Positions 449-16,977 are shown, numbered from the stretch's first letter. The stretch: DNA of 64,000 nucleotides from Patescibacteria group bacterium (GCA_028688055.1 JAQTYZ010000003.1:66752-130751), one strand, 5' to 3'. Notes: generated by a model not told the origin, from the letters alone. A program made the numbers and translations.

Positions 449-451
449 TTT

Positions 452-1603
452 ATGCCGGAAATTAATTTATTACCAAATGAATTAAGGGAGAAAGAAGAGA
501 AGGAATTGGGTTCAAAAAAGAAATCCAAGAATTTTTCGGTTTCACTTTCCAGCCCCCAAAAAGAAAAAACTGAGGCGCCGCTAACAGCACCAAAATTTTC
601 GTTACTTAGCCGCTTGTTTTACAAACCGACCCCTAAAGCCAGATCTGTTCAAGTGGTGGCTGAAGAAAAAGAAATAAAAGAAGATCAGCCACCGGTCGAA
701 GCTAGGGTAGAAAATGTTATTTTATCGGACAGTCAGCCCCTTGATGAAATGGAGCATGATTTATTCATCAATAACAGTCAAGCGCCAACTGAAGGGGTAA
801 GTGAAAAAGGTGAAGCGGATAAAATAATAAATAAAGAAGATGGCCAGAAAATTGATGAGATCAAGGCGGAGCAAAAAAAGACAATTAAGCCAAGGGCTAA
901 GCTGTTTAACTTTTTTAAACGCGCGCCGAAGGTGGTTGATTCAAAAATAGTGGAGGAGGCTGAGGAAAAAGGTGGAGTGCACCATAATAAATCTTTTAGT
1001 CGAAGGCATGACAATAGTGATTCGGTTCTAGACGTCAATTTGATTCCGGCCGATTTGGCTAAGCGTCCCGATCTGGAACTAAAGTCGAAGGCAATTAAAA
1101 GCGGGGTGGCGATTTTTATCACAATTTTGTTAATTATTAGCACTTATCTAGGCATAACTTGGTATCAACTTAAAATTGCTCAGGAAATTAAAAATATTGA
1201 GGGTCAAATTAAAGATTATGATTCAAAAATAGCGGCTAAAGAGAATGAAAAAACATCGGCCCTCGATTTGCAACAGCGGCTAATTTTGGTTAAGCAGCTT
1301 TTTGACGGGCATGTTTATTGGACTAGGTTTTTCGATTTGTTAGAGAAATACACCAGCTCGGAAGTTTACTATACTAATTTTTCAATGGTGGGACAGGATA
1401 AACTGGTAATTTCGGCCGTGGGTATGGATTATCAGTCGGTTGCCCGACAGCTGGTTGCCTTTGAAAATGCAACTGACTTTGTTAAGTCGGTTAGAATTGA
1501 TTCGGCTTCGGCCAAAATTGATTCGGCCGACGGAAAATTTGCCGGCGTTAATTTCAACATTAATTTGGAATTTGTGCCAGGCGTTTTTTTACAGCCCAAC
1601 TAA
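452..1603 (+). CDS. PilN-like bitopic membrane protein with long low-complexity (K/E-rich) N-terminal region
   Basis: Single TM helix (VAIFITILLIISTYLGITWY) followed by coiled-coil/periplasmic domain; position immediately after pilM. Confidence 0.5.
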   Translation: MPEINLLPNELREKEEKELGSKKKSKNFSVSLSSPQKEKTEAPLTAPKFSLLSRLFYKPTPKARSVQVVAEEKEIKEDQPPVEARVENVILSDSQPLDEMEHDLFINNSQAPTEGVSEKGEADKIINKEDGQKIDEIKAEQKKTIKPRAKLFNFFKRAPKVVDSKIVEEAEEKGGVHHNKSFSRRHDNSDSVLDVNLIPADLAKRPDLELKSKAIKSGVAIFITILLIISTYLGITWYQLKIAQEIKNIEGQIKDYDSKIAAKENEKTSALDLQQRLILVKQLFDGHVYWTRFFDLLEKYTSSEVYYTNFSMVGQDKLVISAVGMDYQSVARQLVAFENATDFVKSVRIDSASAKIDSADGKFAGVNFNINLEFVPGVFLQPN

Positions 1604-1606
1604 TTT

Positions 1607-2218
1607 ATGGCAATAAATAAAAAATCCAAAACAGACAAGCTGAGTGGTAATCTACTAAACTTGGCCTTGGCCAAGTACTACAAAATTGGTACGGCTGCCA
1701 TTATTGTTAGCTTAGTTTTGTCGAGTTTTTTCTTGGTGTTGAAGCCAAAATATGAAGAAGTTGGCGTCGGTGGTCAATATAATTTGGACACTTTAAAAAG
1801 TGAACTGGCCAAGCGCCAGAAATATTTGAGCGACATTGAAGCGTTGACTAACAATTACCGTAATATCGGGCAGGGCGAGGTTGCCAGGTTGCATGAAGTA
1901 TTACCGCCAGCAAAGGATGTCGCTGGACTGTTTGTTCAATTCCAATCGTTGGCCGAAAAGAATAATTTATTATTAGCCGGCGTAAATATTAACGAGGTGC
2001 CGGAGGTAATTAAAATCGGCAGCGGTAAATCAATTAATAAACTAAGTATTACCGTTAATCTGGTTGGTAATAATAATGGTAGTTATTCGGAAATCAAGAA
2101 TTTTTTGGCATCGTTGGAAGATAATATTAGACTCTTTGATGTTAGTGCGGTTTATTTCAGTCCCGGTTCGCCTAATTATTCCGTTAGTATGTTTACTTAT
2201 TACACTAAAGGAAGTTAG
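1607..2218 (+). CDS. PilO-like membrane protein
   Basis: N-terminal TM helix, about 200 aa, position after the PilN-like gene. Confidence 0.45.
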   Translation: MAINKKSKTDKLSGNLLNLALAKYYKIGTAAIIVSLVLSSFFLVLKPKYEEVGVGGQYNLDTLKSELAKRQKYLSDIEALTNNYRNIGQGEVARLHEVLPPAKDVAGLFVQFQSLAEKNNLLLAGVNINEVPEVIKIGSGKSINKLSITVNLVGNNNGSYSEIKNFLASLEDNIRLFDVSAVYFSPGSPNYSVSMFTYYTKGS

Positions 2219-2223
2219 ACCTT

Positions 2224-2535
2224 ATGCTGATACCAAGGAAAATGTCATTAAATCGAAAAACGATAATTATCTTTATGGTTGTGTTAATTTTAGCGGTGGC
2301 CGGGTATCTTTTTTATGTTGGTTTTTTGGCTGGTAAAATTGAAATTTTAAAACCGCTAAAAGTTGAGGTTGAGGTTTTGCAGGTACCAAGTATCAACAGT
2401 GATTTTAATGATGACTTTTTGAATCGGCTGCCTTATACTGGCCTAGTCCAGTCGGCAAAATTGCCTATTACCGCTGGTGTCGTCGGTCGAAATAACCCTT
2501 TTAGTGAAATTCCGTTTTCTTTAGGCTTAAAATAA
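2224..2535 (+). CDS. Small membrane-anchored hypothetical protein (possibly PilP-like)
   Basis: 103 aa, N-terminal TM helix, in the pilus operon. Confidence 0.3.
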   Translation: MLIPRKMSLNRKTIIIFMVVLILAVAGYLFYVGFLAGKIEILKPLKVEVEVLQVPSINSDFNDDFLNRLPYTGLVQSAKLPITAGVVGRNNPFSEIPFSLGLK

Positions 2536-2541
2536 AGTTCA

Positions 2542-4272
2542 ATGTTTAAAGATCAACAACAGCTTCTCAATGCCTTAGTTGAAGCCAAACTTTTAAGTGC
2601 TGATCAGGCCAAGGAACTTGAGGCCAAAGCGACCGAAGTCAATCAGACTCCGGAAGATTTAATATTAGATGGTCATTTGGTTGCGGAAGATCGTTTAACG
2701 GAAATCAAAGGGAAATTACTTGATATCCCGGCGGTTGATTTAAAGGGTCGAGAAATTCTTAAAAAGGTTTTGAATCTAATACCGGGCGAAGTATCAGAAA
2801 ATTATCAAATGGTGCCGTTTGAATTAATTGGCAATGAGCTTCACGTCGGTTTGGTCAACCCGCAGAATTTTAAAGCGATTGAAGCCGTGGAATTCTTAGC
2901 TCAGAAATCCGGTTTTAAAGTTAGATATTTCATTATTTCTCAAGCTAGTTTGCATGAAGCTTTTAAAAACTACCGCATTTTAGGCGATGAAGCGAAAGAA
3001 GCGCTGGCTAATTTAAGTGAAGAAACCGCCGTCACGGGCGCAGCTAAAGAGTCGCTGAAAGAAATGGAAGAAGTAATTAAAAGCGCTCCAGTTTCGAAAA
3101 TGGTTTTGGTAATTATTAGACACGCTATTGACGGTCATGCATCGGACATTCATATTGAACCGACGATGAAAGATACTAAAGTACGCTACCGTATTGATGG
3201 AATTTTAAGAACGTCGTTGGTTTTGCCAAAGTACATCCATTCCGCGATTATTGCCCGAATAAAAGTTTTGGCAAATTTAAAACTTGATGAAACCAGAAAG
3301 CCTCAAGACGGCCGGATTAGATTGACAATTGATAACCGGGAAATTGATTTTCGTGTTTCAACCCTGCCTTTGTTTGAAGGTGAAAAAGTTGTTTTGCGAA
3401 TTTTAGATACCGAATCGCAAGTGCCGGGTCTGGAGCAATTAGGTTTTAATTCTGTTTACATTGAAAAAATTAAAGAATCAATCAAACGGCCGCATGGGTT
3501 AATATTGCTAACCGGGCCAACTGGTTCGGGAAAAACCACCACCTTGTATACGGTTTTGACTATGTTGAATCAAGATGGAATTAATATTGTAACACTTGAG
3601 GATCCGATTGAATATTATATTAGTGGTGTTAACCAATCGCAGATTAATCCGGAAGTTGGGTATACTTTTGCTTCGGGTTTGAGAGCAATTTTACGGCAAG
3701 ACCCCAATGTGGTTATGCTTGGTGAAATTCGAGATAATGAAACGACTGAGCTAGTCATTCACGCCAGCTTGACTGGTCATATGATTTTATCCACTCTTCA
3801 TACCAACGACGCTATCGGTGCGATTCCCCGACTGGTGGATTTAGGAGCGGAACCATTTTTGCTGTCATCGGTTTTAAATCTAGTCATTGCCCAGCGTTTG
3901 GCTCGAAAAATTTGTACCTATTGTAAGAAGGAAAGTTCAGTTCCGGAGACTTTGTTAACTAAAGCCAAAACCTTGCTGGCTGAAATCCCGCCGAAATTTT
4001 TGAGTAAAATTGATCCAGCGAAGTTATCTTTTTACAAGGGCGAGGGTTGTGCTCATTGTGGTAATTTGGGGTATCAAGGCCGAACAGCGGTCGCGGAAGT
4101 GATTAATATTACGACTGAAATTAGAGAAATAATGAATAATGGCGCCAAGGTTGAAGAAATTAGAAAGGCTTTAAAAAAACAGGATTTTATTACGCTGGCG
4201 CAGGACTGTCTTGTTAGGGCGCTTGAGGGCGAAACGACGCTTGATGAAGTTGTCCGGATTTCGACTTTGTAA
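2542..4272 (+). CDS. pilB: Type IV pilus assembly ATPase PilB (GspE family)
   Basis: Walker A GPTGSGKTTT, Walker B VVMLGEIRD, His box ILSTLHTND, tetracysteine CTYC...CAHC, N-terminal GspII domain. Confidence 0.9.
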   Translation: MFKDQQQLLNALVEAKLLSADQAKELEAKATEVNQTPEDLILDGHLVAEDRLTEIKGKLLDIPAVDLKGREILKKVLNLIPGEVSENYQMVPFELIGNELHVGLVNPQNFKAIEAVEFLAQKSGFKVRYFIISQASLHEAFKNYRILGDEAKEALANLSEETAVTGAAKESLKEMEEVIKSAPVSKMVLVIIRHAIDGHASDIHIEPTMKDTKVRYRIDGILRTSLVLPKYIHSAIIARIKVLANLKLDETRKPQDGRIRLTIDNREIDFRVSTLPLFEGEKVVLRILDTESQVPGLEQLGFNSVYIEKIKESIKRPHGLILLTGPTGSGKTTTLYTVLTMLNQDGINIVTLEDPIEYYISGVNQSQINPEVGYTFASGLRAILRQDPNVVMLGEIRDNETTELVIHASLTGHMILSTLHTNDAIGAIPRLVDLGAEPFLLSSVLNLVIAQRLARKICTYCKKESSVPETLLTKAKTLLAEIPPKFLSKIDPAKLSFYKGEGCAHCGNLGYQGRTAVAEVINITTEIREIMNNGAKVEEIRKALKKQDFITLAQDCLVRALEGETTLDEVVRISTL

Positions 4273-4317
4273 TAAAATAAACCAAGCAAGTTAATTAATA
4301 AAGATTAGGAGAAATTT

Positions 4318-4695
4318 ATGTCAACGAGCAGAAAAATTCTATTAGTGGAGGATGATGAATTCTTGGCGGAGCTGTATGCGACCAAATTAAACATGGAAGG
4401 TTTTGAAGTTTTTTTGGCCGTTGACGGCGAAAAAGGATTAAAGCTGGCCAAAGAAAAAATGCCTGACTTAGTTTTGTTAGATATTATTTTACCTAAAATG
4501 GACGGTTTTGAAGTTTTAGGAAAAATGAAAATCGATCCGGAAACAAAAAATATCCCGGTCATCTTGTTAACCAATTTGTCGCAAAAAGACGAAGTGAAAA
4601 AGGGCCTTGAGTTAGGAGCAAAGGACTATCTGATTAAGGCTCACTTTATGCCGTCGGAAGTCGTAAAGAAAATTAAGCAAACCTTAGGTGATTAA
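4318..4695 (+). CDS. Stand-alone response-regulator receiver domain (PilH/CheY-like)
   Basis: LLVEDDE..., LLDIILPKMDGFEV receiver motifs; RBS AGGAGA upstream. Confidence 0.85.
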   Translation: MSTSRKILLVEDDEFLAELYATKLNMEGFEVFLAVDGEKGLKLAKEKMPDLVLLDIILPKMDGFEVLGKMKIDPETKNIPVILLTNLSQKDEVKKGLELGAKDYLIKAHFMPSEVVKKIKQTLGD

Positions 4696-4697
4696 AT

Positions 4698-5771
4698 ATG
4701 GAAGCATCATTAGAATTATTTATTAACAAAATTTTGACCACGGCCGCCAAGCGGCAGGCGTCCAATATTCATTTGACCGTTAATTCATATCCGGCCTTAA
4801 GAGTTAATGATGAGTTGCTTGAGTTGACCGATGAACAAATCGTTACCGATTCATTAGTGAAAAATATGGCTAATGACTGGCTTGATGATTCGCAGAAAAA
4901 AATATTGGAAGAAAAAAAGGAAATTATTGTCACCAAAGAAATGGGAAAAAAATTCAGATTAAAAATGAATTTTTTTTATCAGAAAGGTTTTTTATCAATT
5001 GCTCTTAGATTAATTCCCGGTCGGGTGCCACCATTGATAAATTTGGGTTTACCAAAAGCAGTTTACGGTTTAACTGATAAAAAAGCGGGTTTGATTATTG
5101 TGGCCGGACCGTATGGATCTGGCCGGACGACAACGGTGGCATCAATGGTCGAGGAGATAAATAAGAGTCGTAAAGAAAATATTGTCGTTGTTGAAGATCC
5201 GATTGAGTATTTATTTGTTAATCAAAATAGTTTGATTGAACAAAGGCAAGTTGGTCGAGATACCAATTCATTTTCTGACGCGATTGATAATGCGGAAGAG
5301 TCTGATGTCGACATCATCGCCATTGGTGTTACTGAAGAAAAAGGCGTTGTAGAAAAAGTCTTAGAATTTGCCAACTCCGGACGGTTGGCGATTTTAGCAA
5401 TGGAGACAACATCAGTGGTTCAAACAATTCAAGAGTTTTTAGATAATTTTAGTTCGGATCGGCGCGACCGAGCTCAGGTACTGTTGGCTGAAAATCTGTT
5501 AGCCATCATTGTCCAGCGTTTAGTGCCGCGAGTGGGGGGTGGGTTAGTTTTAGCGGCGGAGGTTTTAATTAGCACCGAAGCGGTTAGTTCGTTAATTACC
5601 GAAGGACGGATAAAACAATTAACAACAATATTACAAACATCGCGCGCCGAAGGAATGATCAGTTTGGATCAATCACTGGCGGAGTTAGTTAGGTCGGGTG
5701 AGGTCATGATTAATCATGCCATCGAATATGCGGCTGATCCACAAAGTTTTCGGGCCATTGCTAAAGATTAA
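4698..5771 (+). CDS. PilT-like retraction ATPase paralogue with degenerate catalytic motifs
   Basis: PilT-family architecture; Walker A is GPYGSGRTTT (Lys to Arg); His box TLHT replaced by AMET; Walker B region DVDIIAIGVTEE is atypical. Confidence 0.75.
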   Translation: MEASLELFINKILTTAAKRQASNIHLTVNSYPALRVNDELLELTDEQIVTDSLVKNMANDWLDDSQKKILEEKKEIIVTKEMGKKFRLKMNFFYQKGFLSIALRLIPGRVPPLINLGLPKAVYGLTDKKAGLIIVAGPYGSGRTTTVASMVEEINKSRKENIVVVEDPIEYLFVNQNSLIEQRQVGRDTNSFSDAIDNAEESDVDIIAIGVTEEKGVVEKVLEFANSGRLAILAMETTSVVQTIQEFLDNFSSDRRDRAQVLLAENLLAIIVQRLVPRVGGGLVLAAEVLISTEAVSSLITEGRIKQLTTILQTSRAEGMISLDQSLAELVRSGEVMINHAIEYAADPQSFRAIAKD

Positions 5772-5779
5772 TTACGGTT

Positions 5780-6985
5780 ATGCCTTTTTATCGCTACAAA
5801 GCCAATAATATAGATAATGAGACGGTCGAAGGTATGATCCAGGCCGCTTCTTCAGATGTGGCTGCTGACATTTTGAATGATCAAAATTTGACCATTTTGG
5901 CGTTAAATGAAGAAAAAATTAGTTTTCGCGAGCGAATGTTGCGGGTTTTGAATCGGGTCAAAATTAAAGATTTAGTTATTTTTTCTCGGCAACTATCGGT
6001 CATTGTTTCCGCCACGATTCCCTTGGTTCAAGGCTTAAGAATTTTAGTCACTCAGACCGATAGTCCGGTGCTAAAAACAGTCATTTCCGAAGTGGCTGAC
6101 GACGTCGAGGGTGGCGCTAAATTATCGGCGGCACTCAAAAGGCATTCGGAAATTTTTAGCGATTTTTTTATTAATATTATTAAGTCCGGTGAAACTTCCG
6201 GTAAGCTCGATGACGTTTTGAATTATCTAGCCGATCAGCAAGAAAAGGATTATGATTTAAGTTCAAAGATTAAAGGGGCAATGATTTATCCGATTTTTAT
6301 CGTTAGTGGATTATCAATTGTTGGAACCTTGATGATGATTTTTGTTATTCCCCAACTGACTGCGGTTTTAATTGAAACTGGAGCTCAACTGCCAACTTCG
6401 ACCATCGTTTTGATTGCGGTTAGCAATTTTTTGCAAAAATTTTGGTGGTTGTTAGCCATCGTAATCATTGGTACTTATTTTATACTTCACGCTTTAATTA
6501 AAACCGAAAAAGGTAAATATGCTTGGGACACCATCTTATTGCGTTTGCCAGTTTTTGGTGAATTATTTAGAAAAATTATTTTGGTTCGATTTGCTCGAAG
6601 TTTATATACCTTAACTACCGGCGGCGTGTCATTGACTAAAAGCTTGGAAATTGTTGCCGATGTTGTCGGCAATGCCGTTTTCCATGATTTGATTAGTCAA
6701 ACCGTTAAAGAGGTTGAGGACGGAAATTCAATTGCTACTATTTTTTTGCAGAGTAAAGAGGTACCACCAATGGTTTCGCAGATGTTGAATTTAGGGGAAA
6801 AAACCGGACGGCTCGATGATATCTTGGAAAAATTAGCCCACTTTTATAGCCGCGAAGTTGAAAATTTGGTGGCCAACCTGGTAACGTTGCTTGAGCCAAT
6901 GGTGATGATTCTAATGGGTATCGCGGTCGGTGGATTATTTTCGGCTATTATTTTACCAATGTATAGCCTGGCGTCAAGCCTTTAA
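5780..6985 (+). CDS. pilC: Type IV pilus inner-membrane platform protein PilC (GspF family)
   Basis: 401 aa, two GspF repeats, polytopic membrane protein, follows pilB/pilT. Confidence 0.9.
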   Translation: MPFYRYKANNIDNETVEGMIQAASSDVAADILNDQNLTILALNEEKISFRERMLRVLNRVKIKDLVIFSRQLSVIVSATIPLVQGLRILVTQTDSPVLKTVISEVADDVEGGAKLSAALKRHSEIFSDFFINIIKSGETSGKLDDVLNYLADQQEKDYDLSSKIKGAMIYPIFIVSGLSIVGTLMMIFVIPQLTAVLIETGAQLPTSTIVLIAVSNFLQKFWWLLAIVIIGTYFILHALIKTEKGKYAWDTILLRLPVFGELFRKIILVRFARSLYTLTTGGVSLTKSLEIVADVVGNAVFHDLISQTVKEVEDGNSIATIFLQSKEVPPMVSQMLNLGEKTGRLDDILEKLAHFYSREVENLVANLVTLLEPMVMILMGIAVGGLFSAIILPMYSLASSL

Positions 6986-7003
6986 TTAATTAAGGATAAG
7001 ACC

Positions 7004-7420
7004 ATGAATAATAAAAAACGACTCGGATTTACGTTAGTTGAATTGTTGGTTGTTATCTCCATTATTGGAATTTTATCCAGTATTTCTACCGCTTCAGTTA
7101 ATATCGCGCGACAACGTGCCAGAGATGCCAGACGTCAAGCCGACGCTTCTCAAATTCAATTAGCTTTGTATTTATATTTTGATGATCATTTGTCTTTTCC
7201 AGAGGCTGATATGTTGCCAGAAAATGCTGTTTCAAATTGGACCAATGTCTTGGTTCCTAATTTGAATGGCACTAATGGTGGCAGAAAGTATATGACTAGG
7301 GTGCCGCTTGATCCACTCAATATTGATCCTCATTTTTACGGCTATAATAGTGATGGTAAAGAGTTTATTGTTACTTATTATTTGGAAAATGGCGGCCCGG
7401 CTGAACTTCACGGTTATTAA
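7004..7420 (+). CDS. Prepilin-type N-terminal cleavage/methylation domain protein (pilin/pseudopilin)
   Basis: N-terminus KRLGFTLVELLVVISIIGIL (G/FTLxE class III signal). Confidence 0.7.
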   Translation: MNNKKRLGFTLVELLVVISIIGILSSISTASVNIARQRARDARRQADASQIQLALYLYFDDHLSFPEADMLPENAVSNWTNVLVPNLNGTNGGRKYMTRVPLDPLNIDPHFYGYNSDGKEFIVTYYLENGGPAELHGY

Positions 7421-7441
7421 TTTGTGCCTTTGTTGAAAAGT

Positions 7442-7450
7442 TGGTATAAT
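7442..7450 (+). promoter_or_regulatory. Extended -10 promoter element TGGTATAAT for major pilin gene 1
   Basis: TGnTATAAT about 70 nt upstream of ATG; same element and same downstream 5' UTR (ACCAAACGAAAGGGGGTGAGACAATG) recur at 12786. Confidence 0.55.
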
Positions 7451-7517
7451 TAATTAGTTGTTGATAACTAAAAATTTTGGTTTATTATAAACCAACCAAA
7501 CGAAAGGGGGTGAGACA

Positions 7518-7949
7518 ATGAGAAAGAAAGGTTTTACACTTATCGAACTGTTAGTGGTAATTGCCATCATCGGTCTATTATCGACCTTGGCAGTTGTCGC
7601 TTTGAATTCCGCCCGATTGAAGGCGAGAGATGCTAAGCGCGTAGCTGATATTAAACAGGTTCAGACAGCATTGGAGCTTTATTTTAATGATCAACAGAAT
7701 TATCCAGGTACCACTGGTACTTTAGGCACAGCTTCAATGGTTTGTCTTGGTACAGCCGGTTTTGGTACCTCAGGCTGTGGCGGCGCTTATATGGGATTAG
7801 TCCCTTCGAACCCAACTCCAAACGGAGCGGTTTATGTATATTCAGCGGATGGTACTTCAGGAACATACTCAATCACCTTCAGTCTGGAAGGAACGACTGG
7901 TGGTTTAGGTTCAGGTGCTCACACTGCTTCACAAGACGGGTTGGAATAA
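7518..7949 (+). CDS. Major type IV pilin, copy 1
   Basis: [21 protein letters not shown] prepilin leader; Gly/Thr/Ser-rich variable centre; conserved C-terminus [19 protein letters not shown]; RBS GGGGGTGA. Confidence 0.8.
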
Positions 7950-7974
7950 TTTATACAATACACCTATTAACAAT

Positions 7975-7999
7975 AAAACCCCAGCCTGGGGTTTTATTG
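7975..7999 (+). terminator. Rho-independent terminator
   Basis: AAAACCCCAGCCTGGGGTTTT hairpin plus T-run. Confidence 0.6.
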
Positions 8000-8035
8000 T
8001 TGTGTTAGACGTCATTTCAGGTTAAAATTACTATC

Positions 8036-10303
8036 ATGACACCTAAGATCCAAAAAATATTTTTGCCCGTTATATTCTTTTTTTTATTGCTGGTTTTTTT
8101 TGCCCCCTACCTGAATGGGAGCAATATTTTATATGAGGGTGACTATACGGGCAGTGATTTAACTGAGTTGAATTTACCTTTTAGATACTGGGCGGCCGAA
8201 CAAATCAAACATGGAGATTTGCCGCTTTGGAATGATCAAATATCAGCTGGTTTTCCGCAGCTCGCTGAGGGCCAAACGGGAGTTTTTTATCCCTTTAATT
8301 TAATTTTTTTTATTTTATTGCCAATCGGCTTCGCGGTGCTGGCAACTTATTTTTTAAATTTTCTCTTGGCTGGAATTTTTACCTTTATTTATTGTCGAAG
8401 CTTGAATATCAGTCAGGTCGGAAGTTGGCTGGCGGCGACGGCCTTTAGTTTTAGCGGTTGGTTTGTCTTTAGACTAAAACATCTTAATTTGATTAATGCG
8501 GCGATTTGGCTGCCATTAATTTTTTATTTAATTGAAAAATTAATTGTTTCAAAACGTAAAGATTTGTTACTCGTCTTGTTGTCAGGTGTTTATACGATTC
8601 AGTTCTTTGCCGGTCATCCTCAAATCAGTTACATCTCAGTGCTAGCTGGGCTGGCCTATTATTTGATTAGATTATTAGGAAACGACGAATTTAAAAAATC
8701 TGGACGCTGGCTAAAAATTTATAAAATTATATTTCCCTGGATGGTAATTGGTTTTTTGACGCTGGGAATGACGGCCATCCAACTTTTACCAACTTACCAA
8801 TTATCCAAATTATCAGCCAGAGGTAGCTGGTCTGACTTTAATAATTCTGTTGGCACTTTAGTCTTTCAGCCTGTAGAATTTTTAACCGCTATCTATCCTT
8901 ATATATTTGGTAATCCAGCTAACGGCAGTTATCAAGGTTTTGATTTGGGATTCAAATCTGGTTTCTGGGAGGACAGCGTTTACTTCGGTCTACTGCCATT
9001 ATTTTTTTCATTTATTGCTTTAATATTTGTTTGGCGCAAAGAAAAAATTATTAGACAGCTGTCGTTTTTTTTGGTTTTTTGTTTATTTTTTATCCTAGCC
9101 GGATCTAATCCTTGGTTTAAATGGGTCTGGAGTGTCTTACCCTCTTACCAAGTATTTCGTTTTCATCAGCGATTCTTGTTACCATTTATCTTGATAATGT
9201 CGGTTTTGTCAGCCCTGGGATTTGATTATTGTGCCAAAAAGATTGCCAACGTGGGGAAAACCGGCAAGGCGGCCCCACGTAATCTCAATAGCGGTTGGTC
9301 GATTATTGTTATTTTGATTGTTAGTATTGAGTTGCTTTTTATGTCGCTGCAGTTTATTGGCACGATGCCAACTACCTATTTAACCGCCGAGCCTGAAAGC
9401 GTTGAATGGTTAAAGGCTGATCAGGATCAGTTTCGAGTTGCTAGTTTATATTATCAGCTGTCATGGAATTTTGTTTTCTCAAATTCTAATGGTTGGCTTA
9501 GCACGCCAGATTTATACCTAGAAAATCGTGAGTTGGTACAACCTAATTTAAATTTATTTTATGGTCTTAGTACTTATAACGATCGTGGTTGGAATGAGGG
9601 TGGGCAGCTCGACCGTCGCTTGGCAGCACTCTTAACGGTGATTGATAAAAATATCACTCTGGATGTCACCTCCCACGCCGTAATAATTAGTCCTAATGTT
9701 TTGAAAGTTTTAGGTTTGCAAAATGTCAAGTATTTATTGTCATATTATCCGGTCCGTAGCAATCACTTAGCGGAAGTTAAATCGATTAATCAATTATTTT
9801 TGCCAACTTTGCATATTTATCAAAATCCCTATTTTTTAAACAGGGCCTTTATGGTTTTCCAGTCCAAGCCGGTTAATGCTGACGCTGACGAAATAGCAAG
9901 TTTGTTTGCTGATGATTTTGATCCGTCAAAAGTGGTAACGAGCGCGGCTGAGCTTGGTTTAAAACCAGCCCTTAAAGCTCAGTCCCAAGTCGAAGTTATT
10001 AGTCATCAGGCTAATAAATCAGCTTATCGTGTTAAAACTGATAGTGATGGTTTGCTGTTTATTAGCCAGCTGTATTATCCGGGCTGGATTGCCAAAGTTG
10101 ACGGTAAAAAGGTTGACCTGGAGCGTGTTAATGGGGCATACACTGGCCTAATGATTCCGAGTGGCGAACATCGAGTTGAGCTGAAATATGACCCCAAGTC
10201 TTTCGAGCTTGGGTTAACAATTTCTTTGCTAACACTAATATTGATTATTATTTATTTTGCGATGAAACTTTTGGTTTCAATGCGATCAGTTTTTAAATTA
10301 TGA
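8036..10303 (+). CDS. YfhO-family polytopic membrane protein (GT-C fold glycosyltransferase-like)
   Basis: 755 aa, many TM helices; C-terminal YYPGWIAKVDGKKVDLERVNGAYTGLMIPSGEHRVELKYDP is typical of the YfhO family. Confidence 0.65.
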   Translation: MTPKIQKIFLPVIFFFLLLVFFAPYLNGSNILYEGDYTGSDLTELNLPFRYWAAEQIKHGDLPLWNDQISAGFPQLAEGQTGVFYPFNLIFFILLPIGFAVLATYFLNFLLAGIFTFIYCRSLNISQVGSWLAATAFSFSGWFVFRLKHLNLINAAIWLPLIFYLIEKLIVSKRKDLLLVLLSGVYTIQFFAGHPQISYISVLAGLAYYLIRLLGNDEFKKSGRWLKIYKIIFPWMVIGFLTLGMTAIQLLPTYQLSKLSARGSWSDFNNSVGTLVFQPVEFLTAIYPYIFGNPANGSYQGFDLGFKSGFWEDSVYFGLLPLFFSFIALIFVWRKEKIIRQLSFFLVFCLFFILAGSNPWFKWVWSVLPSYQVFRFHQRFLLPFILIMSVLSALGFDYCAKKIANVGKTGKAAPRNLNSGWSIIVILIVSIELLFMSLQFIGTMPTTYLTAEPESVEWLKADQDQFRVASLYYQLSWNFVFSNSNGWLSTPDLYLENRELVQPNLNLFYGLSTYNDRGWNEGGQLDRRLAALLTVIDKNITLDVTSHAVIISPNVLKVLGLQNVKYLLSYYPVRSNHLAEVKSINQLFLPTLHIYQNPYFLNRAFMVFQSKPVNADADEIASLFADDFDPSKVVTSAAELGLKPALKAQSQVEVISHQANKSAYRVKTDSDGLLFISQLYYPGWIAKVDGKKVDLERVNGAYTGLMIPSGEHRVELKYDPKSFELGLTISLLTLILIIIYFAMKLLVSMRSVFKL

Positions 10304-10944
10304 TTAACAAAGAAGCTTTAGATAAAATTCACCGAAATGTTCCGCCTGATTATTATCAGTCTGGGATCAAGCATAATTATTTACAACGATATTGGCATCA
10401 CCGACGTTTTGCAGTAATTAGTCGTGAATTAAAAAAATTAAATTTAAGCGCTCCCTTGTTGGATTTGGGTTGCCACGGCGGTGACTTAACCAACGTCTTG
10501 AGTCAAGCCGCGCAGGTTGATATTTATGGTATTGATATCTCGGAAAAATCAATTGAATTTGCTAAAAGGCGTTTCCCAAACATCAATTTTAGTGTTCAGG
10601 ACTTTCCCGGTCAAAAGCAATTTACTGATAATTATTTTCAAGCCATCACCGCCTTTGATGTGATGGAGCATATCCCTGATACCCCTAAAGTCCTTGATGA
10701 AATTAAAAGATTGCTAAAACCCGGTGGCTATTTTATTATGGCTATTCCCAATGAAAATTTACTTTTTAAAGTAGTCTGGTTGTTCTGGACGAGCTTTAAA
10801 GGTCAAGTTTGGGAGGGCGTTCATGTCCACGATTTTAAGATGGAAGGCTTTGCGGAATTTGAAAAGCAGGGTTTTGAAAAAATTGTTGAGCTAAAAATTA
10901 TTTTTGGGATGTGGTGGTTTTTAATTTTTCGCGTTAAAAAATAA
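10300..10944 (+). CDS. Class I SAM-dependent methyltransferase
   Basis: LDLGCHGGDLT (motif I), LKPGGYFIM; overlaps upstream stop by 4 nt. Confidence 0.75.
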   Translation: MINKEALDKIHRNVPPDYYQSGIKHNYLQRYWHHRRFAVISRELKKLNLSAPLLDLGCHGGDLTNVLSQAAQVDIYGIDISEKSIEFAKRRFPNINFSVQDFPGQKQFTDNYFQAITAFDVMEHIPDTPKVLDEIKRLLKPGGYFIMAIPNENLLFKVVWLFWTSFKGQVWEGVHVHDFKMEGFAEFEKQGFEKIVELKIIFGMWWFLIFRVKK

Positions 10945-10947
10945 ATA

Positions 10948-12765
10948 ATGAAAACACTTAAAGCTAATAAAAATTTTTTGTTATTCGGTTTGGTTTTTTT
11001 TGTTGCAATGTCGGTCTATATTATGACCTTAGCGCCGTCCATTACCATGGAAGACAGCGGTGAATTAGTGACGGCGGCTTATACACTCGGGATTCCTCAT
11101 CCGTCCGGTTATCCATTGTTTGTCCTCTTAGGCAAGCTATTTACTTTTTTACCATTGGGTACTATTGCTTGGCGAGTTAATTTAATGTCGGCTTGTTTTG
11201 CATCGCTCGCAGTAGCTTTGCTTTATCTAATCCTTGAAAAAACGACAAAAAATAAAATTATTTCCGTTGGTAGCGCATTAATGTTAGCTTTTAGCCCGGT
11301 TTACTGGTCACAGAGCGTAATCACGGAGGTGTATGCTTTAAATATTTTTTTTGTGGCGGTGTTATTGTACCTGTGTTTGTTGTATTGGGAAACGAAGAAT
11401 AAGAAATTGTTGCTCTGGTTTTCTTTTTGGTACGGCCTGAGCTTAACAAATCACTCGATGAATATTTTGTTAGCACCGGCTTTTGCCGCTTTTTTTATAT
11501 ATGCTGATTGGAAAATTCTAAAAAAATTTAAGTTAATAGTGGCCATGCTGGGTCTTTTTGTACTCGGGTTGTCCGTTTATTTTTATATCCCGTGGCGGGC
11601 GTTTCAGTTGCCAATTTTTAATTGGGGTCCGATTACAACTTGGAGCGATGTTTGGAAACATCTTAGTCGAGCGCAGTACAATGATTTTTCACCCCTGAGT
11701 AATGAATATCGCAAAATTGGTTTGGTCATCTCTTTTTTTTATGAGATCTACCAACAATTTCATTTGCCGACGTTGATTTTAGCTTTTGGTGGCGCTATAT
11801 ATTGGTGGTCAAAAAATCGTCCGATCGCGCTTTTAACGTCGGGAATATTTTTATTAAACAGTTTGGGGATTATTTTTTTAAGAAAATTCGGCTGGGGGAT
11901 AAGTGTCGATTTTACTTATCGAGTATATTATTTACCGGCCCTGATGATTGTTATATTTTGGTTTGCCTCTATTGTGGCTTTTGGTTTAGATAAAATAAAA
12001 TTTTACTTTAAAGATCGTCCGAACATTATTAAAACCCTGACAGTTGTCATTTATATCTTAATCATTTCTTTACCAGCTAGTTTTGTCCTGGCCAATTATC
12101 AGCGTGAAGATATGAGCAGCTTTTGGCTTAATTATGATTATACTAGAAATCTGCTCAATAGTTTGGAGCCAAATAGCATTTATTATTTTGCCTACGATGG
12201 TAGTTTGCAGGGCGATACGGAGTTATTTAGTCTGATCTATTTTAAAGATGTTGAAGGATTAAGACCAGACGTCAGCATCGTGACGGAGCAGCAATTTTTT
12301 TATCTTGATTTATATTTAGCGTTGCCGGCTGATTATTATCAATTAAGTTTTGAAGATCGGCGAAAAGTATTGATGAGTCTACTGACTAAGATAAAAAATC
12401 GTCCCCTCTATGCTAATTACGCCTTAACCTCAACTAACAATAACGAGCACCTTTATAGTTTATCCAACGGTTATGCCTATAAAGTCTTTTCCAATATTGC
12501 TGAGGCGAGAAAATCGAAAGTTGGTTTATTTTTAGCGCCAATCAGAGGGCTCGATGAAATGGCCGAGCAGGGTGATAATACCGTTTTAGGATTTATATCG
12601 CATTACTATTATAATTTGAGCGCGTACTACTTGACTTCCGGATCGACCGCTCAATACCAAAAATATTTAATGAAAGCTTTTAATCTTGATAACGCGCCAT
12701 TTAATCATGAGTATCGACGGTTTCTTGATTATCGCGCCGAGTGGCTTCGTAATGATGGTGGGTAA
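10948..12765 (+). CDS. DUF2723 (TMEM260-like) polytopic membrane protein, putative GT-C glycosyltransferase
   Basis: N-terminal MEDSGELVTAAYTLGIPHPSGYPLF signature of DUF2723; about 12 TM helices. Confidence 0.6.
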   Translation: MKTLKANKNFLLFGLVFFVAMSVYIMTLAPSITMEDSGELVTAAYTLGIPHPSGYPLFVLLGKLFTFLPLGTIAWRVNLMSACFASLAVALLYLILEKTTKNKIISVGSALMLAFSPVYWSQSVITEVYALNIFFVAVLLYLCLLYWETKNKKLLLWFSFWYGLSLTNHSMNILLAPAFAAFFIYADWKILKKFKLIVAMLGLFVLGLSVYFYIPWRAFQLPIFNWGPITTWSDVWKHLSRAQYNDFSPLSNEYRKIGLVISFFYEIYQQFHLPTLILAFGGAIYWWSKNRPIALLTSGIFLLNSLGIIFLRKFGWGISVDFTYRVYYLPALMIVIFWFASIVAFGLDKIKFYFKDRPNIIKTLTVVIYILIISLPASFVLANYQREDMSSFWLNYDYTRNLLNSLEPNSIYYFAYDGSLQGDTELFSLIYFKDVEGLRPDVSIVTEQQFFYLDLYLALPADYYQLSFEDRRKVLMSLLTKIKNRPLYANYALTSTNNNEHLYSLSNGYAYKVFSNIAEARKSKVGLFLAPIRGLDEMAEQGDNTVLGFISHYYYNLSAYYLTSGSTAQYQKYLMKAFNLDNAPFNHEYRRFLDYRAEWLRNDGG

Positions 12766-12785
12766 TTGTTAGGTGATTAAGTTTG

Positions 12786-12794
12786 TGGTATAAT
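12786..12794 (+). promoter_or_regulatory. Extended -10 promoter TGGTATAAT for major pilin gene 2
   Basis: Same promoter and 5' UTR block as at 7442. Confidence 0.55.
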
Positions 12795-12842
12795 AAATTT
12801 ATAATTTTTTTGGATTACAACCAAACGAAAGGGGGTGAGACA

Positions 12843-13307
12843 ATGAGAAAGAAAGGTTTTACACTTATCGAACTGTTAGTGGTAATTGCCATCATCGGTC
12901 TATTATCGACCTTGGCAGTTGTCGCTTTGAATTCCGCCCGATTGAAGGCGAGAGATGCTAAGCGCGTAGCTGATATTAAACAGGTTCAGACAGCGTTGGA
13001 GCTTTATTTTAATGACAATAACAGTTATCCGATTATGGGTGGGGCGCCGATTGTGTTAGGGTCAGGTGCCACCTGTTTAGGTGACGGTGGTTTTGGCACT
13101 AGTTGTTCGGCGCCAGTCTATATGGGTTTATTGCCAACCAACCCAACGCCAAATGGTGCTGATTATTCTTATACTTCTGTTTCAGAGGGTGGCGGTGATT
13201 GTGGCTCGGAGCCTTGCTCAACATATGCCATTACCTTTACACTTGAAGGAACTACGGGTGGCTTAGGTTCAGGCGCTCACACGGCCTCACAGGATGGTTT
13301 ACAGTAA
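12843..13307 (+). CDS. Major type IV pilin, copy 2 (true start at internal ATG 12843, not the 12783 ORF start)
   Basis: Identical 5' UTR/RBS and first ~55 codons as pilin 1; divergent middle; conserved C-terminus [24 protein letters not shown]. Confidence 0.8.
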   Translation: MRKKGFTLIELLVVIAIIGLLSTLAVVALNSARLKARDAKRVADIKQVQTALELYFNDNNSYPIMGGAPIVLGSGATCLGDGGFGTSCSAPVYMGLLPTNPTPNGADYSYTSVSEGGGDCGSEPCSTYAITFTLEGTTGGLGSGAHTASQDGLQ

Positions 13308-13327
13308 AAATCAGTTCGGAATTTTAG

Positions 13328-13357
13328 ATCCCGCCCAATAATTTGGGCGGGATTTTT
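13328..13357 (+). terminator. Rho-independent terminator
   Basis: ATCCCGCCCAATAATTTGGGCGGGATTTTT. Confidence 0.6.
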
Positions 13358-13407
13358 AGACTCCAAAAATGTTTGCCTATTTTGCTTAATCAAGGTAAAA
13401 TTAAGGT

Positions 13408-14157
13408 ATGTTTGAACTATTTATTTTTATTTTTGGCCTGGTAATTGGTAGTTTTTTGAACGTTGTTATTTTGCGGTTAGAAAAAGCGGAATCATTTATG
13501 AGTGGTCGTTCGCGCTGTCCAAACTGTAAACATAATTTAGCTTGGTATGACAATATTCCGCTATTGAGTTTTATTTTCTTGCGCGCTAATTGTCGTTATT
13601 GCCACACAAAAATTTCTTGGCAATACCCAATCGTTGAGTTAGCAACGGCTGTGTTGTTTAGTCTATTATATTATAAATTTGATTTTACTGACCATTTTTT
13701 TTCTTTTTTACTCTTAACCTGTTTTTTGATAATTATCTTTGTCTACGATCTAAAATATTATTTAATTCCAGACGTTGTCTCAATACCAGCAATTATTGTT
13801 GCTCTGCTTCTGAATATTTTTTTACACCTTAGTTTGACCAGCGTCATCCTGGGCGCCATTGTCGGCGGGTTGTTTTTTGCTCTTCAATATTGGGTTTCCC
13901 GGGGAGTTTGGGTTGGTGATGGCGATATTCGTTTAGGTATTTTAATGGGTTTAATTTTGGGCTTTAAAATTTTGTTGGTGGCGCTTTTTTTGGCGTACTT
14001 GGTTGGTGCGATGGTGGGAGTAAGTCTGTTGCTAGTCAAAAAAAAGCAGCTGTCATCAGCGCTTCCCTTTGGACCGTTTTTAACCTTAGCGACTTTTGTG
14101 GCGATGATTTGGGGCGAAAAAATTTTATTTTGGTACTTAAATTTAGTTTACTACTAA
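13408..14157 (+). CDS. pilD: Prepilin peptidase PilD (A24 family)
   Basis: LIGSFLNVVILRL, CPNC...CRYC zinc motif, polytopic, DGDIRLG Asp box. Confidence 0.85.
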   Translation: MFELFIFIFGLVIGSFLNVVILRLEKAESFMSGRSRCPNCKHNLAWYDNIPLLSFIFLRANCRYCHTKISWQYPIVELATAVLFSLLYYKFDFTDHFFSFLLLTCFLIIIFVYDLKYYLIPDVVSIPAIIVALLLNIFLHLSLTSVILGAIVGGLFFALQYWVSRGVWVGDGDIRLGILMGLILGFKILLVALFLAYLVGAMVGVSLLLVKKKQLSSALPFGPFLTLATFVAMIWGEKILFWYLNLVYY

Positions 14158-14158
14158 T

Positions 14159-14755
14159 GTGGTAAAGCAGAGATTAAAATTTTTTTTAAATCGGCGGGGC
14201 TTTACCTTAATTGATTTATTGGTCGCCGCGACGGTTGTAATTATTATGCTAAGTTTTGGTTTAGCGCGGTTTAGAACCGGTCAGTTTAGCAATGAACTTG
14301 ATGTTTCCACTAAGCAATTGTCTGATGGTGTCAGTACGGTTCGCAATTATAATTTAGCCGGTCGGACATTAGTGAATAGTAGCTTACCTGATGGTGGCTA
14401 TGGTGTTAGGTTTGATTTAGCTAGCCCAGATAAATTTAAGTTATTCGCCGTGGTCAATGCGGCAGCGGAAATTTTACCCAAGGGAACATCAACTCTCAGT
14501 GGTGTCGACTTGAAAAGTTTTTGTGGTTTAAATAAGGCGACGGTTACCACGCTGCCATGCCAAGGTGCTAGTTGGAATAATATTGGTAATTATTTAGAAA
14601 TAATTTTTACCCCGCCGGGAAAAATTTTAGCTAATTTTAGTGATACTGGCACTTATCAGTATGTTGGTGGTGTGATTGAACATCAGCGCACTGGCCAAAA
14701 GGCCTACTTTTATATTTCTTTGACCTCCGGTCTGATAACCCAGGGTTTATTATGA
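14159..14755 (+). CDS. Minor pilin/pseudopilin (GTG start)
   Basis: RRGFTLIDLLVAATVVIIML prepilin N-terminus. Confidence 0.6.
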   Translation: MVKQRLKFFLNRRGFTLIDLLVAATVVIIMLSFGLARFRTGQFSNELDVSTKQLSDGVSTVRNYNLAGRTLVNSSLPDGGYGVRFDLASPDKFKLFAVVNAAAEILPKGTSTLSGVDLKSFCGLNKATVTTLPCQGASWNNIGNYLEIIFTPPGKILANFSDTGTYQYVGGVIEHQRTGQKAYFYISLTSGLITQGLL

Positions 14756-15324
14756 AATATTTTAATCGAAATAATTCCGGCCAAAGTTTAGTTGAAACAG
14801 TTTTTGCTATTGGTATTTTGATGATGGTCGTTAGTGCTATTTTGGCCTTAGCTGCCGCCAACACTTTGGGCCAAAAAGAGAGTGAATTTCAAATTGTGGC
14901 TAATAATTTAGCTCGTGAAAATATTGAAGTGGTCAGAAATATTCGCGATTCAAATTGGTTGACTGGTGGTAAAAAAGCTTGGGATGATGGCTTAACTGAT
15001 GCCTTGGGCGGCAATCAAGCGATCGCTTTATTTGATCCGGCCAGTAATAGTTGGTCACTTAATTTTAATTATCTCGATGATGCCTTATATAATTCACCGG
15101 ATGGTACTTATAGTCATGATGCGACCAAAAAACAATCAATTTATCATCGGCACTTGATTTTGGATAATATTTGTCGGGATGCTAACGGCCAGGAATTAAT
15201 AAAATTTCCCTGTGGCAGCGGCGAAGACAAGGTCGGAATTAAGATAATGTCAACGGTACAATGGAATGAGCGTGGGCGAGATCGCAAGGTGACAATTGAT
15301 GATTTAATTTATGAGTGGAAATAA
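14752..15324 (+). CDS. Minor pilin-like protein
   Basis: N-terminal SGQSLVETVFAIGILMMVV (Gly then Glu at +5, hydrophobic helix). Confidence 0.5.
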   Translation: MKYFNRNNSGQSLVETVFAIGILMMVVSAILALAAANTLGQKESEFQIVANNLARENIEVVRNIRDSNWLTGGKKAWDDGLTDALGGNQAIALFDPASNSWSLNFNYLDDALYNSPDGTYSHDATKKQSIYHRHLILDNICRDANGQELIKFPCGSGEDKVGIKIMSTVQWNERGRDRKVTIDDLIYEWK

Positions 15325-16030
15325 AAAATCACAAGCTGGTTTTACGTTAGTTGAGATAATTGTTGTCCTCGGAATTTTTTCAGTTTTGGTCGTGGTAATT
15401 TTAAATGTTTTTATTTTAGCTTTGCGCTCACAGCGTCAGGCAGCCTTCAGGCAACAAACGCTTTCAAATTTACGTTATATTGTTGAGACTATTGCCAAGC
15501 AGGTTAGAACATCAGAAATTGATTATTCGTATCCATATGATAAAGATGGCGATAATGGTATTGTCGGCGCCGAGTCCGAACTTTATCTCAAGGATAGCGA
15601 TGGCAACAGTTCAGCTTACTATTTGAAAAATGGTGAATTATATTTGACATCGAATGGTCAAGATTCTCCGCTAACCAATATTAATGATATAAAAATTGTA
15701 ACTTTGAGTTTTTTTATTGCGCCCTCAACTAACCCCTTTACCGAAGAAAGGTGTAACGCGGCGGTAACGCCGAATGGCTGTCAGCCGACGATCAGTTGTA
15801 CGGTCGATGATTCCAGTAACGTGACATTTAAAACTGGCTTTTGCCTTTGTACTCAAAATCAGGATTGTGCGACAAACAATTGTGATACCACCGATCGGGT
15901 TTGCTTACCACCCGATGTCCAACCGAGGGTAACGCTGGTGCTAGGCTTTGAAAGTGCGCAGTTGAGGCCGGAGGATATCAAGCGAATATATTTACAGACA
16001 ACAGCGACCAGCCGTATCTATAAGCGATAA
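15311..16030 (+). CDS. Minor pilin (prepilin-type N-terminal domain)
   Basis: AGFTLVEIIVVLGIFSVLVVV; Cys-rich C-terminal domain. Confidence 0.6.
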   Translation: MSGNKKSQAGFTLVEIIVVLGIFSVLVVVILNVFILALRSQRQAAFRQQTLSNLRYIVETIAKQVRTSEIDYSYPYDKDGDNGIVGAESELYLKDSDGNSSAYYLKNGELYLTSNGQDSPLTNINDIKIVTLSFFIAPSTNPFTEERCNAAVTPNGCQPTISCTVDDSSNVTFKTGFCLCTQNQDCATNNCDTTDRVCLPPDVQPRVTLVLGFESAQLRPEDIKRIYLQTTATSRIYKR

Positions 16031-16032
16031 CT

Positions 16033-16977
16033 ATGCATCAAGCGAATAAACAATCTGGCATCGTTTTAATTCTAGCGGTTTTAATTATTGGCGCGGTTTT
16101 AGTGACGGCTGTTGTTTTTAGTAATCTAGTTATTTCGCAAATTCAGCAATCGCGTCTGATTGATCAATCAATTGCCTCCTATTATTTAGCGGAAAGCGGT
16201 GCTGAACGCGCGCTCTATCAAACGAGGCGATTACAAGCTGTTAAATCGGCTGATTGTTCAAAAATTGTTAGCGGTTCGACTTGTCAAAACAGTGGGAATA
16301 ATTATGGTTTTTGTTCTTTGACTAATGATAAAATTGCTTGCATTACCGATAATCAAGGCGCTTTAGCCGTCGGTGGCGGTTGGAATATTATTGTTAATAA
16401 TGAAAAAGATTCAACGGTAAATTTAAATGTTGGTGATTCATTCCAGTTGGATTTATTCAGCCCCTATCAGGGTGGTGATTTTCAAACCAATGTTCAATCT
16501 TTTTTGGTTACTAGTACTATTACCGGTGGGGCTAAGCTTTACGCGGAACTTACTAATTTAACTTGGTTGGTTGGCGGAACGATTAATTGTCCGCTTGATA
16601 CGTTTGTGCCAGCGCGTCCGGCCATCAGCAAGGGTCAGATCAATTTGGATTCTCAAACTGGATATTCATCAACGGGCTATTTAACCAAACTGGCCAATGA
16701 TCCCGAAATTAATCCAAACTGTTCTTATGTCTTGCGCTTAAGTAATGTTTTGGACGGAGCTGAACCGGGTCAATTTACGGTTAGTATTTATAATAAAGCG
16801 ATTGATGTTGATCCGACGACTGATAAGTTAGAAATACCGAGCCGGTTAGTTATTGATTCCCAAGCAACGGTTGGCCGTTCCCAACAAAGTGTCAGAATAA
16901 AATCGCCGATTAGGCCGCCCCTTTCCGGGCTATATGATTTTGTCCTTTTTTCAGAGCAGGAAGTTGTTAAGAATTAA
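16033..16977 (+). CDS. Pilus-associated hypothetical protein (PilX-like N-terminal hydrophobic segment)
   Basis: N-terminal SGIVLILAVLIIGAVLV TM segment; last gene of the pilin cluster. Confidence 0.4.
   Translation: MHQANKQSGIVLILAVLIIGAVLVTAVVFSNLVISQIQQSRLIDQSIASYYLAESGAERALYQTRRLQAVKSADCSKIVSGSTCQNSGNNYGFCSLTNDKIACITDNQGALAVGGGWNIIVNNEKDSTVNLNVGDSFQLDLFSPYQGGDFQTNVQSFLVTSTITGGAKLYAELTNLTWLVGGTINCPLDTFVPARPAISKGQINLDSQTGYSSTGYLTKLANDPEINPNCSYVLRLSNVLDGAEPGQFTVSIYNKAIDVDPTTDKLEIPSRLVIDSQATVGRSQQSVRIKSPIRPPLSGLYDFVLFSEQEVVKN

Follow-up and report, generated by a model that had tools for sequence, protein, structure and literature searches.

The window analysed here, i.e. the whole stretch of 64,000 nucleotides (64 kb), comes from a metagenome-assembled genome of the Patescibacteria (candidate phyla radiation, CPR), and holds a type IV pilus (T4P) operon at positions 2–16977, which forms a single unit on the plus strand. 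The operon starts with the genes for PilM (cut by the window start), a PilN-like protein, two small open reading frames (ORFs), PilB, a response regulator with a REC domain, PilT and PilC (2–6985, all assigned by Pfam matches), and continues with pilin 1 (7004–7420), pilin 2 (7518–7949), a YfhO-family protein (8036–10303, 755 aa), a class I S-adenosylmethionine (SAM)-dependent methyltransferase (10300–10944, 214 aa), a DUF2723/TMEM260-like protein (10948–12765, 605 aa), pilin 3 (12843–13307), the prepilin peptidase/N-methyltransferase PilD and four minor-pilin-like genes, after which ligA follows. The three genes between pilins 2 and 3 are the subject of this study. They had been placed between pilin genes in a first-pass annotation, and ORF and Pfam searches bear out their identity, position and strand, although that annotation counted two pilin genes where there are three. 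The stop codon of the YfhO gene and the start of the methyltransferase gene overlap by 4 nt, and only 3 nt separate the methyltransferase stop from the DUF2723 start; the three genes are thus probably translated as a unit, and the methyltransferase gene is probably translationally coupled to the YfhO gene.

The 605-aa protein, whose closest named relatives are found in Candidatus Buchananbacteria and Falkowbacteria, matches the DUF2723 family (PF11028) at 128.8 bits against a cut-off of 24.2 over residues 36–189, and also matches PMT_2, while a scan with the NCBIfam models returned no match. It is a sequence homologue of human TMEM260 (PDB 9rql; phmmer E=1.5e-36, residues 16–458 of the query against 32–475 of the chain), the protein O-mannosyltransferase to which the first-pass annotation had likened it. 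The cryo-EM structure and mutagenesis of TMEM260 (preprint 10.64898/2026.03.17.711096) define six essential residues: donor binding is assigned to D52 and H67, binding of phosphate and sugar to R264 and Y267, contact with the mannose to R355 in TMH10, and the role of catalytic base to D441 in a luminal Rossmann-like domain. Five of the six are kept in the HMMER alignment, the catalytic base included, as D36 (D52), H51 (H67), R241 (R264), Y244 (Y267) and D423 (D441). Among 50 homologues with identities down to 28%, D36, E39 and H51 show no variation, while R241, Y244 and D423 are kept in at least 90%. At the level of sequence, this establishes the protein as a true TMEM260 homologue which carries the functional residues. 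Its AlphaFold2 model, based on an alignment of 50 homologues, reached a pLDDT of 94.1, and a Foldseek search of the PDB with this model gave PglB, STT3, ArnT, ALG12, DPY19 and Pmt4 with a probability of 1.00. The Rossmann-like domain of the model is followed by a few helices (535–601) without a Pfam tetratricopeptide repeat (TPR) match, and full TPR arrays are present in more distant DUF2723 relatives.

The YfhO protein matches PF09586 at 88 bits (cut-off 28.5), but in a patchy fashion with two matching stretches, the better one being C-terminal; the same family was found in all 331 full-length homologues, which are annotated as YfhO. A search of PDB sequences with the protein gave nothing. 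The AlphaFold2 model (pLDDT 93.9, alignment of 54 homologues) has approximately 13 transmembrane (TM) helices, then a beta-rich domain outside the cytoplasm, and ends with one more TM helix; its Foldseek matches are AftD, STT3, PglB, AglB and ArnT. For both models the top matches in the PDB were exclusively GT-C glycosyltransferases, which also included AftA, so that both membrane proteins are confidently predicted to have the GT-C fold, as the first-pass annotation had proposed when it suggested structure prediction as a check. The first extracytoplasmic loop of the YfhO protein carries an invariant D41, and a D36 that is conserved in at least 90% of the homologues. Members of the YfhO family in streptococci have been reported to be protein O-glycosyltransferases for Ser/Thr-rich regions (10.1101/2024.05.05.592596). 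The NCBIfam models of two of these, PgfM1 and PgfM2, match the YfhO protein at 54 and 44 bits respectively, restricted to its C-terminal region and very much lower than the equivalog cut-offs (1400 and 1500), and we therefore rejected the protein as an equivalent of PgfM1 or PgfM2.

The conservation of catalytic and loop-1 residues argues that neither protein is a dead enzyme. That the two GT-C-like proteins would be catalytically dead, structural or chaperone parts of the pilus machine is hardly credible to us: nothing specific speaks for it beyond the existence of non-enzymatic pilin accessory proteins such as TfpY (PMC11841053), and it sits badly with the invariance or near-invariance of both the residues essential in TMEM260 and the acidic residues of the YfhO loop 1. 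In some relatives there is a further polytopic membrane protein of 464 aa, without a Pfam family, encoded between the YfhO and methyltransferase genes (at 7967–9361 in locus L003, and also in L004, L010 and L012), and P0159 (1206 aa) is a fusion in which it follows the C-terminus of YfhO; the protein is possibly an additional component of the GT-C-like or flippase kind.

The association with pilins was followed through other genomes, which the first-pass annotation had named as the place where its proposal could fail, should relatives carry these genes away from pilus loci. All six Patescibacteria relatives examined (35–55% identity) have a DUF2723 gene directly adjoining a pilin gene, and the linkage is kept where the genes outside the operon differ, with ribosomal protein genes in L009 and a toxin-antitoxin pair in L006. 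The upstream part of the operon has the same gene order in L001, L003, L005, L006 and L007. The two other genes of the module are less constant, as the YfhO gene is present in four of the six relatives and the methyltransferase gene in three, being absent from L005, L007 and L009.

We expanded this comparison to 79 distinct DUF2723 loci from GTDB species representatives, annotated with a pipeline of ORF, HMM and regular-expression searches. A pilin or core T4P gene lies within 10 kb in 26/79 loci, and a pilin gene within 300 bp in 12/79. Pilin density declines monotonically with distance from the DUF2723 gene, from 1.2 per 10 kb at 0–1 kb to about 0.1 at 8–10 kb, and T4P-linked members occur in 16 of the 53 single-linkage clusters formed at 40% identity. 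The gene orders vary widely: DUF2723, pilin, pilin, DUF2723, GT2 (a family 2 glycosyltransferase) in Zixibacteria and in the L051/L080 set; PilB (in L056), PilT, PilC, GT2, three DUF2723 genes and two pilins in Abyssobacteria and another lineage (L056/L081); PilD, PilT, DUF2723, pilin, PilB in Dehalococcoidia; and pilin, a GT2::GtrA fusion and DUF2723 in a deltaproteobacterium and in L065. In Burkholderiales a classical PilA gene is followed by GT2 and DUF2723 genes no more than about 2 kb away, as is the case for pilA in L064, L072 and L074, and the link is also seen in Eisenbacteria, Woesebacteria and WOR-1. From its recurrence in all six Patescibacteria relatives as well as in other phyla, it is clear that the arrangement of pilin and DUF2723 genes is not due to chance.

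The best NCBIfam matches of four of the neighbouring GT2 proteins (L006, L065, L080 and L064) were ArnC, AglJ, PgfS and PpgS, all below the equivalog cut-offs; these are polyprenyl-phosphate sugar synthases, and by sequence the GT2 proteins are thus synthase-like. As far as family matches can tell, these loci show the classical combination of a GT2 synthase and a GT-C enzyme, to which a GtrA flippase is sometimes added, in this case recurrently beside a pilin gene. GT2 genes also lie beside the YfhO gene in L006, where the GT2 is fused to a methyltransferase, and in L089. Outside the CPR, YfhO genes are linked to T4P genes in WOR-1 and Margulisiibacteriota: locus L020 (WOR-1) has a pilin, a YfhO gene, three PMT_2 genes and a DUF2723 gene, and a Margulisiibacteriota contig (L090) has PilC followed by three YfhO genes. 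The L020 region (2207–12100) is noteworthy in its own right, as PilB and PilC are followed by a pilin and then by five consecutive GT-C genes (YfhO, three of the PMT_2 type and DUF2723). A different kind of expansion was seen in an Armatimonadota locus (L022, 3–13900), where about eight DUF2723 ORFs, either paralogues or fragments, are arrayed in tandem on the same strand and have no T4P genes in their vicinity. This suggests that the family has undergone large expansions in particular lineages, where it would serve other acceptors.

The same survey bears on the explanation that the sugars added by the two GT-C enzymes go to a different part of the envelope, for instance to an S-layer protein, a lipoglycan or a polymer resembling teichoic acid, with the position of the enzymes in the operon reflecting co-expression or inherited synteny. 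The majority of the DUF2723 loci (53/79) are without T4P linkage, and since many loci, such as the TPR-rich L008, are unlinked, the family must also have other acceptors. YfhO homologues also glycosylate teichoic acids (PMC5836110), namely in Bacillus subtilis and Listeria, and CPR genomes contain many glycosyltransferases without an assigned target (PMC5220378). Against this stands the recurrence of the pilin adjacency in unrelated phyla with differing neighbours and gene orders, so that inherited synteny cannot explain the linkage, and the density of pilin genes is highest immediately beside the DUF2723 gene. We consider another envelope target rather unlikely.

The pilins themselves differ in their suitability as acceptors. 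The first-pass annotation had described Ser/Thr/Gly-rich pilins, which holds for mature pilin 2 (N_methyl and T2SSG matches) and mature pilin 3 (N_methyl match), with 18–20% Ser+Thr (fractions of 0.20 in pilin 2 and 0.18 in pilin 3) and 14% Gly, whereas GspG-like pilin 1 (N_methyl, PF07963) has only 12% Ser+Thr and 7% Gly. Pilin 1 belongs to a separate orthologue group which is kept in relatives (L001 at 6013, L012 at 4696 and L013 at 5669). Pilins 2 and 3 are paralogues that differ in their central regions: in a DNA alignment the two genes diverge there and converge again towards their C-terminal ends. The most likely startcodon of pilin 3 is the ATG at 12843 rather than the TTG at 12783. Pilin 2 is the probable major pilin, and pilins 2 and 3 are the candidate glycan acceptors. 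About half of the CPR pilins adjoining the module (loci L001–L021) share the C-terminal motif LEGxTGGLxxGxHTA[ST]xxG[IV]Q, and the corresponding regions in pilins 2 and 3 are encoded at 7870–7946 and 13228–13304. The motif bears some resemblance to the way in which the acceptor sequon of TMEM260 ends, GGxx[TS], and the partial sequon [GA]GGxx[ST] was found in 3/41 neighbouring pilins; as the full TMEM260 sequon is absent from these pilins, the motif gives no more than a hint of where a sugar might be attached.

The enzymes could also modify other exposed T4P proteins, i.e. minor pilins, a tip adhesin or the PilN/PilO-like alignment proteins, instead of the major pilins. Four minor-pilin-like proteins and a long PilN-like one are indeed among the products of the operon, and the O-glycosylation sites predicted in Saccharibacteria are mostly on minor pilins (PMC11623550). 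Across the phyla, however, the nearest neighbour of the DUF2723 gene is a short gene resembling those of major pilins, often without minor pilins in the vicinity (L051, L065 and L080), which makes this explanation quite improbable.

The methyltransferase gives matches to Methyltransf_23, Methyltransf_31 and Methyltransf_11 (E about 1e-21) and generic sequence matches in the PDB, and thus appears as a generic class I SAM enzyme. Its possible role is better illustrated by two fusions. In L006 it forms the C-terminal half of a GT2-methyltransferase fusion encoded between the YfhO and DUF2723 genes, whereas in P0154, the YfhO protein of L014, it is fused past the last YfhO TM helix (residues 751–960, 243 bits). 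Because the YfhO model ends in a TM helix following the extracytoplasmic beta domain, the fused domain is predicted to be cytoplasmic, where SAM is available. Since the methyltransferase is fused either to a GT2 or to the cytoplasmic C-terminus of YfhO, it probably acts on a sugar or a lipid-linked donor and not on the pilin polypeptide.

The first-pass annotation had also entertained methylation of the pilins, which is not favoured by these results. In this explanation the enzyme would methylate the pilin protein, for example at Lys or at the C-terminus, independently of glycosylation. Its gene does sit between pilin genes, and pilin methylation beyond the N-terminus has been reported from cyanobacteria. 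Besides the fusions in L006 and P0154, this explanation has to contend with the absence of the methyltransferase from L005, L007 and L009 despite their similar pilins, and with the topology, as SAM is cytoplasmic while the globular domain of the pilin is outside the membrane. The N-methylation domain is already present on PilD (13408–14157; A24_N_bact and Peptidase_A24 matches), of which the A24 N-terminal domain is expected to perform the N-methylation of the pilins. Methylation of the pilin protein is therefore very improbable.

The pilin genes on either side of the module share a direct repeat of 198 bp (7493–7690 and 12818–13015) with a single mismatch, each copy covering the ribosome binding site and the first ~57 codons of pilin 2 and pilin 3, respectively. 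The repeats enclose the 3' part of pilin 2 and the entire module of YfhO, methyltransferase and DUF2723 genes; recombination between them would delete the module and place pilin 3 under control of the pilin 2 promoter. The identity of the copies may alternatively be due to gene conversion between the pilin paralogues. The module itself was also considered as a mobile insertion, which found no support, as its GC content (0.37–0.38) is close to that of the flanks (0.39–0.40) and the synteny is old and conserved.

Between pilin 2 and the YfhO gene there is a terminator-like hairpin with a U-tract (7969–8001), which was overlooked by the consensus terminator scan, spotted by eye and confirmed by RNA folding: its folding energy is −21.7 kcal/mol (z = −4.64), none of 200 shuffled sequences was equally stable, and it is flanked by A and U tracts. 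A hairpin at this position suggests that the major pilin is expressed at a high level while read-through into the modification genes is attenuated, an arrangement described for pilA and accessory genes in other bacteria (PMC11841053). Promoter-like sites precede pilin 2 (7461–7488) and pilin 3 (12766–12794), the latter site having the TG of an extended −10 element; both are consensus matches only, at 10 of 12 positions, and the consensus scan for promoters and terminators gave totals no higher than in shuffled sequences.

Four minor-pilin-like genes (14159–16977; weak N_methyl and GspH/ComGE-like matches) close the operon. Other features of the window were the following. The stand-alone REC response regulator (4318–4695) between PilB and PilT is found at the same place in L001, L003, L005 and L006, and is absent in L007. 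The PilN-like protein (452–1603) is unusually long (383 aa), with a weak match to PilN in its last ~80 residues (E = 4e-4) and an N-terminal part of ~290 residues which matches no family. Downstream of ligA-gatC-gatA lies a gene for a DsbA-like thioredoxin (21043–21789), which is syntenic in L001, L003 and L005 and may form the disulfides of pilins 2 and 3, as both contain Cys pairs. Finally, an Rfam LOOT RNA match (42771–42888, plus strand, 80 bits against a gathering score of 46.4) has no relation to the pilus locus.

Taken together, we favour, with moderate confidence, an extracytoplasmic O-glycosylation module which is dedicated to the pilins and forms part of the T4P operon; the first-pass annotation had arrived at the same idea, and both the predicted folds and the gene neighbourhoods support it. 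The step in which we have this confidence is glycosylation of the pilins by the DUF2723 enzyme, while the division of labour among the enzymes is proposed with less. A GT2 encoded elsewhere in the genome would load a hexose onto polyprenyl phosphate at the cytoplasmic face of the membrane, possibly mannose by analogy with TMEM260, and the cytoplasmic methyltransferase would methylate the sugar or the lipid donor. After flipping of the lipid-linked sugar, the DUF2723 enzyme would transfer it to Ser/Thr residues of the membrane-anchored pilins before their assembly, with D36, H51, R241 and Y244 binding the donor and D423 of the extracytoplasmic Rossmann-like domain acting as base. The YfhO enzyme, an accessory of a sub-clade only, would add a second sugar, either by extending the first or by using other sites. 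The likely pay-off would be a changed surface chemistry of the pilus, with an effect on host attachment or on protection from pilus-specific phages.

Several observations weigh against this proposal, in addition to the unlinked DUF2723 loci and the teichoic acid substrates of YfhO homologues mentioned above. There is neither a GT2 donor synthase nor a GtrA-like flippase in the 64-kb window, which also lacks a further GT-C paralogue. The sixth functional residue of TMEM260, R355, aligns with I336 and has no clear equivalent, in a part of the alignment which is gapped and close to R325 of the conserved YRVYYLP motif. The full acceptor sequon of TMEM260 was found in 0/41 neighbouring pilins, and a YfhO protein with 29% identity, from a gut metagenome (L091), is not linked to T4P genes. 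The support for pilin modification is genomic, and the roles of the YfhO protein and the methyltransferase, like the identity of the sugar, are what we infer from it.

In its widest form the proposal is that the bacterial DUF2723 family includes widespread and so far unrecognised type IV pilin O-glycosyltransferases, prokaryotic relatives of TMEM260, which in this operon would build a methylated pilin glycan sugar by sugar outside the membrane together with YfhO and a donor-modifying methyltransferase, and that the 198-bp repeats could allow loss of the module and pilin switching; for this the chances appear to us evenly balanced. The only searchable paper mentioning DUF2723 was the TMEM260 discovery paper, which refers only to "distant homologs in bacteria", and our literature search found no paper with both "TMEM260" and "pilin". 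Pilin glycosylation was listed as an open question in a study of Saccharibacteria pili (PMC11623550). While the principle is known from systems of the TfpW type, pilin-adjacent GT-C glycosylation by enzyme families not previously linked to pilins would be new. If correct, it would provide the first physiological acceptor for the very large and functionally unassigned bacterial DUF2723/TMEM260-like family, hint at the possible role of the ancestors of a gene involved in human disease, and represent a third enzymatic route to pilin glycosylation next to TfpO/PglL and TfpW. Among the known organelles of CPR bacteria, type IV pili are the principal one for host-cell attachment and motility (PMC11623550), and pilin glycans could set host range, adhesion or resistance to pilus-specific phages.

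The module shares elements with several known systems. The DUF2723 protein and human TMEM260, the O-mannosyltransferase for IPT domains, have the GT-C core and the Rossmann-like "palm" in common, while the C-terminal "fingers" of TMEM260, which consist of TPRs and bind the acceptor, appear to have shrunk to a few helices. The donor of TMEM260 is dolichol-based, whereas in a bacterial host it must be a bacterial polyprenyl phosphate, and the acceptors are IPT domains in the one case and presumably pilins without the TMEM260 sequon in the other. The streptococcal PgtC2 with GtrB, and PgfM1/PgfM2 with PgfS, are likewise YfhO-family GT-C enzymes, each paired with a GT2, which take one sugar from undecaprenyl phosphate (Und-P) and attach it to Ser/Thr-rich segments outside the cytoplasm. 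Their acceptors are the disordered tails of membrane proteins and adhesins rather than pilins, and the YfhO gene in the window is without an adjacent GT2.

TfpO/PilO and PglL modify Ser/Thr residues of type IV pilins at the periplasmic face, and tfpO lies directly 3' of pilA, but these enzymes belong to an unrelated family and transfer oligosaccharides preassembled on undecaprenyl pyrophosphate (Und-PP) en bloc; none of the proteins encoded at 7004–13307 has a Wzy_C/O-antigen-ligase Pfam match. The Gtr systems, consisting of the flippase GtrA, the GT2 GtrB and the GT-C enzyme GtrC, follow the same logic as proposed here, in that a lipid-phosphate-monosaccharide is made inside, flipped, and used outside, and the L065 locus with its pilin, GT2::GtrA fusion and DUF2723 gene resembles this three-component logic. 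Gtr systems decorate O-antigen or teichoic acids and not proteins, however, and of their components the window holds only the GT-C type.

The strongest resemblance is to TfpW (AAM52060.1) of Pseudomonas aeruginosa group IV strains. In both cases the gene for a GT-C membrane enzyme lies beside a major pilin gene, the first periplasmic loop of the enzyme carries an acidic motif, its C-terminal part forms a large domain outside the cytoplasm, and the hairpin between pilin 2 and the YfhO gene recalls the arrangement of pilA with its accessory gene. TfpW O-glycosylates Ser/Thr residues of the pilin from a polyprenyl-phosphate monosaccharide, an activity which is only proposed for the module. The differences are that TfpW contains 11 TM helices followed by TPRs in its C-terminal domain, that it adds D-arabinofuranose from decaprenyl-phosphate-arabinose supplied via genes of the DprE1/E2 type, whereas the relatives of the module carry GT2 synthases of the hexose type, and that the window has two GT-C enzymes and a methyltransferase. 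The TfpW motif YX6PFX7P was present in 0/103 DUF2723 proteins, which is weak and not decisive evidence against a close kinship; the pilin-adjacent proteobacterial DUF2723 proteins carry a DDx-like LEDDGL in loop 1. With regard to such a kinship, a homologue search seeded with a pilin-adjacent Burkholderiales DUF2723 protein gave uncultured relatives only, and a tblastn search against plasmids was empty. TfpW appears to be the closest analogue, as the module would act in the same manner with enzymes of the TMEM260/DUF2723 and YfhO families.

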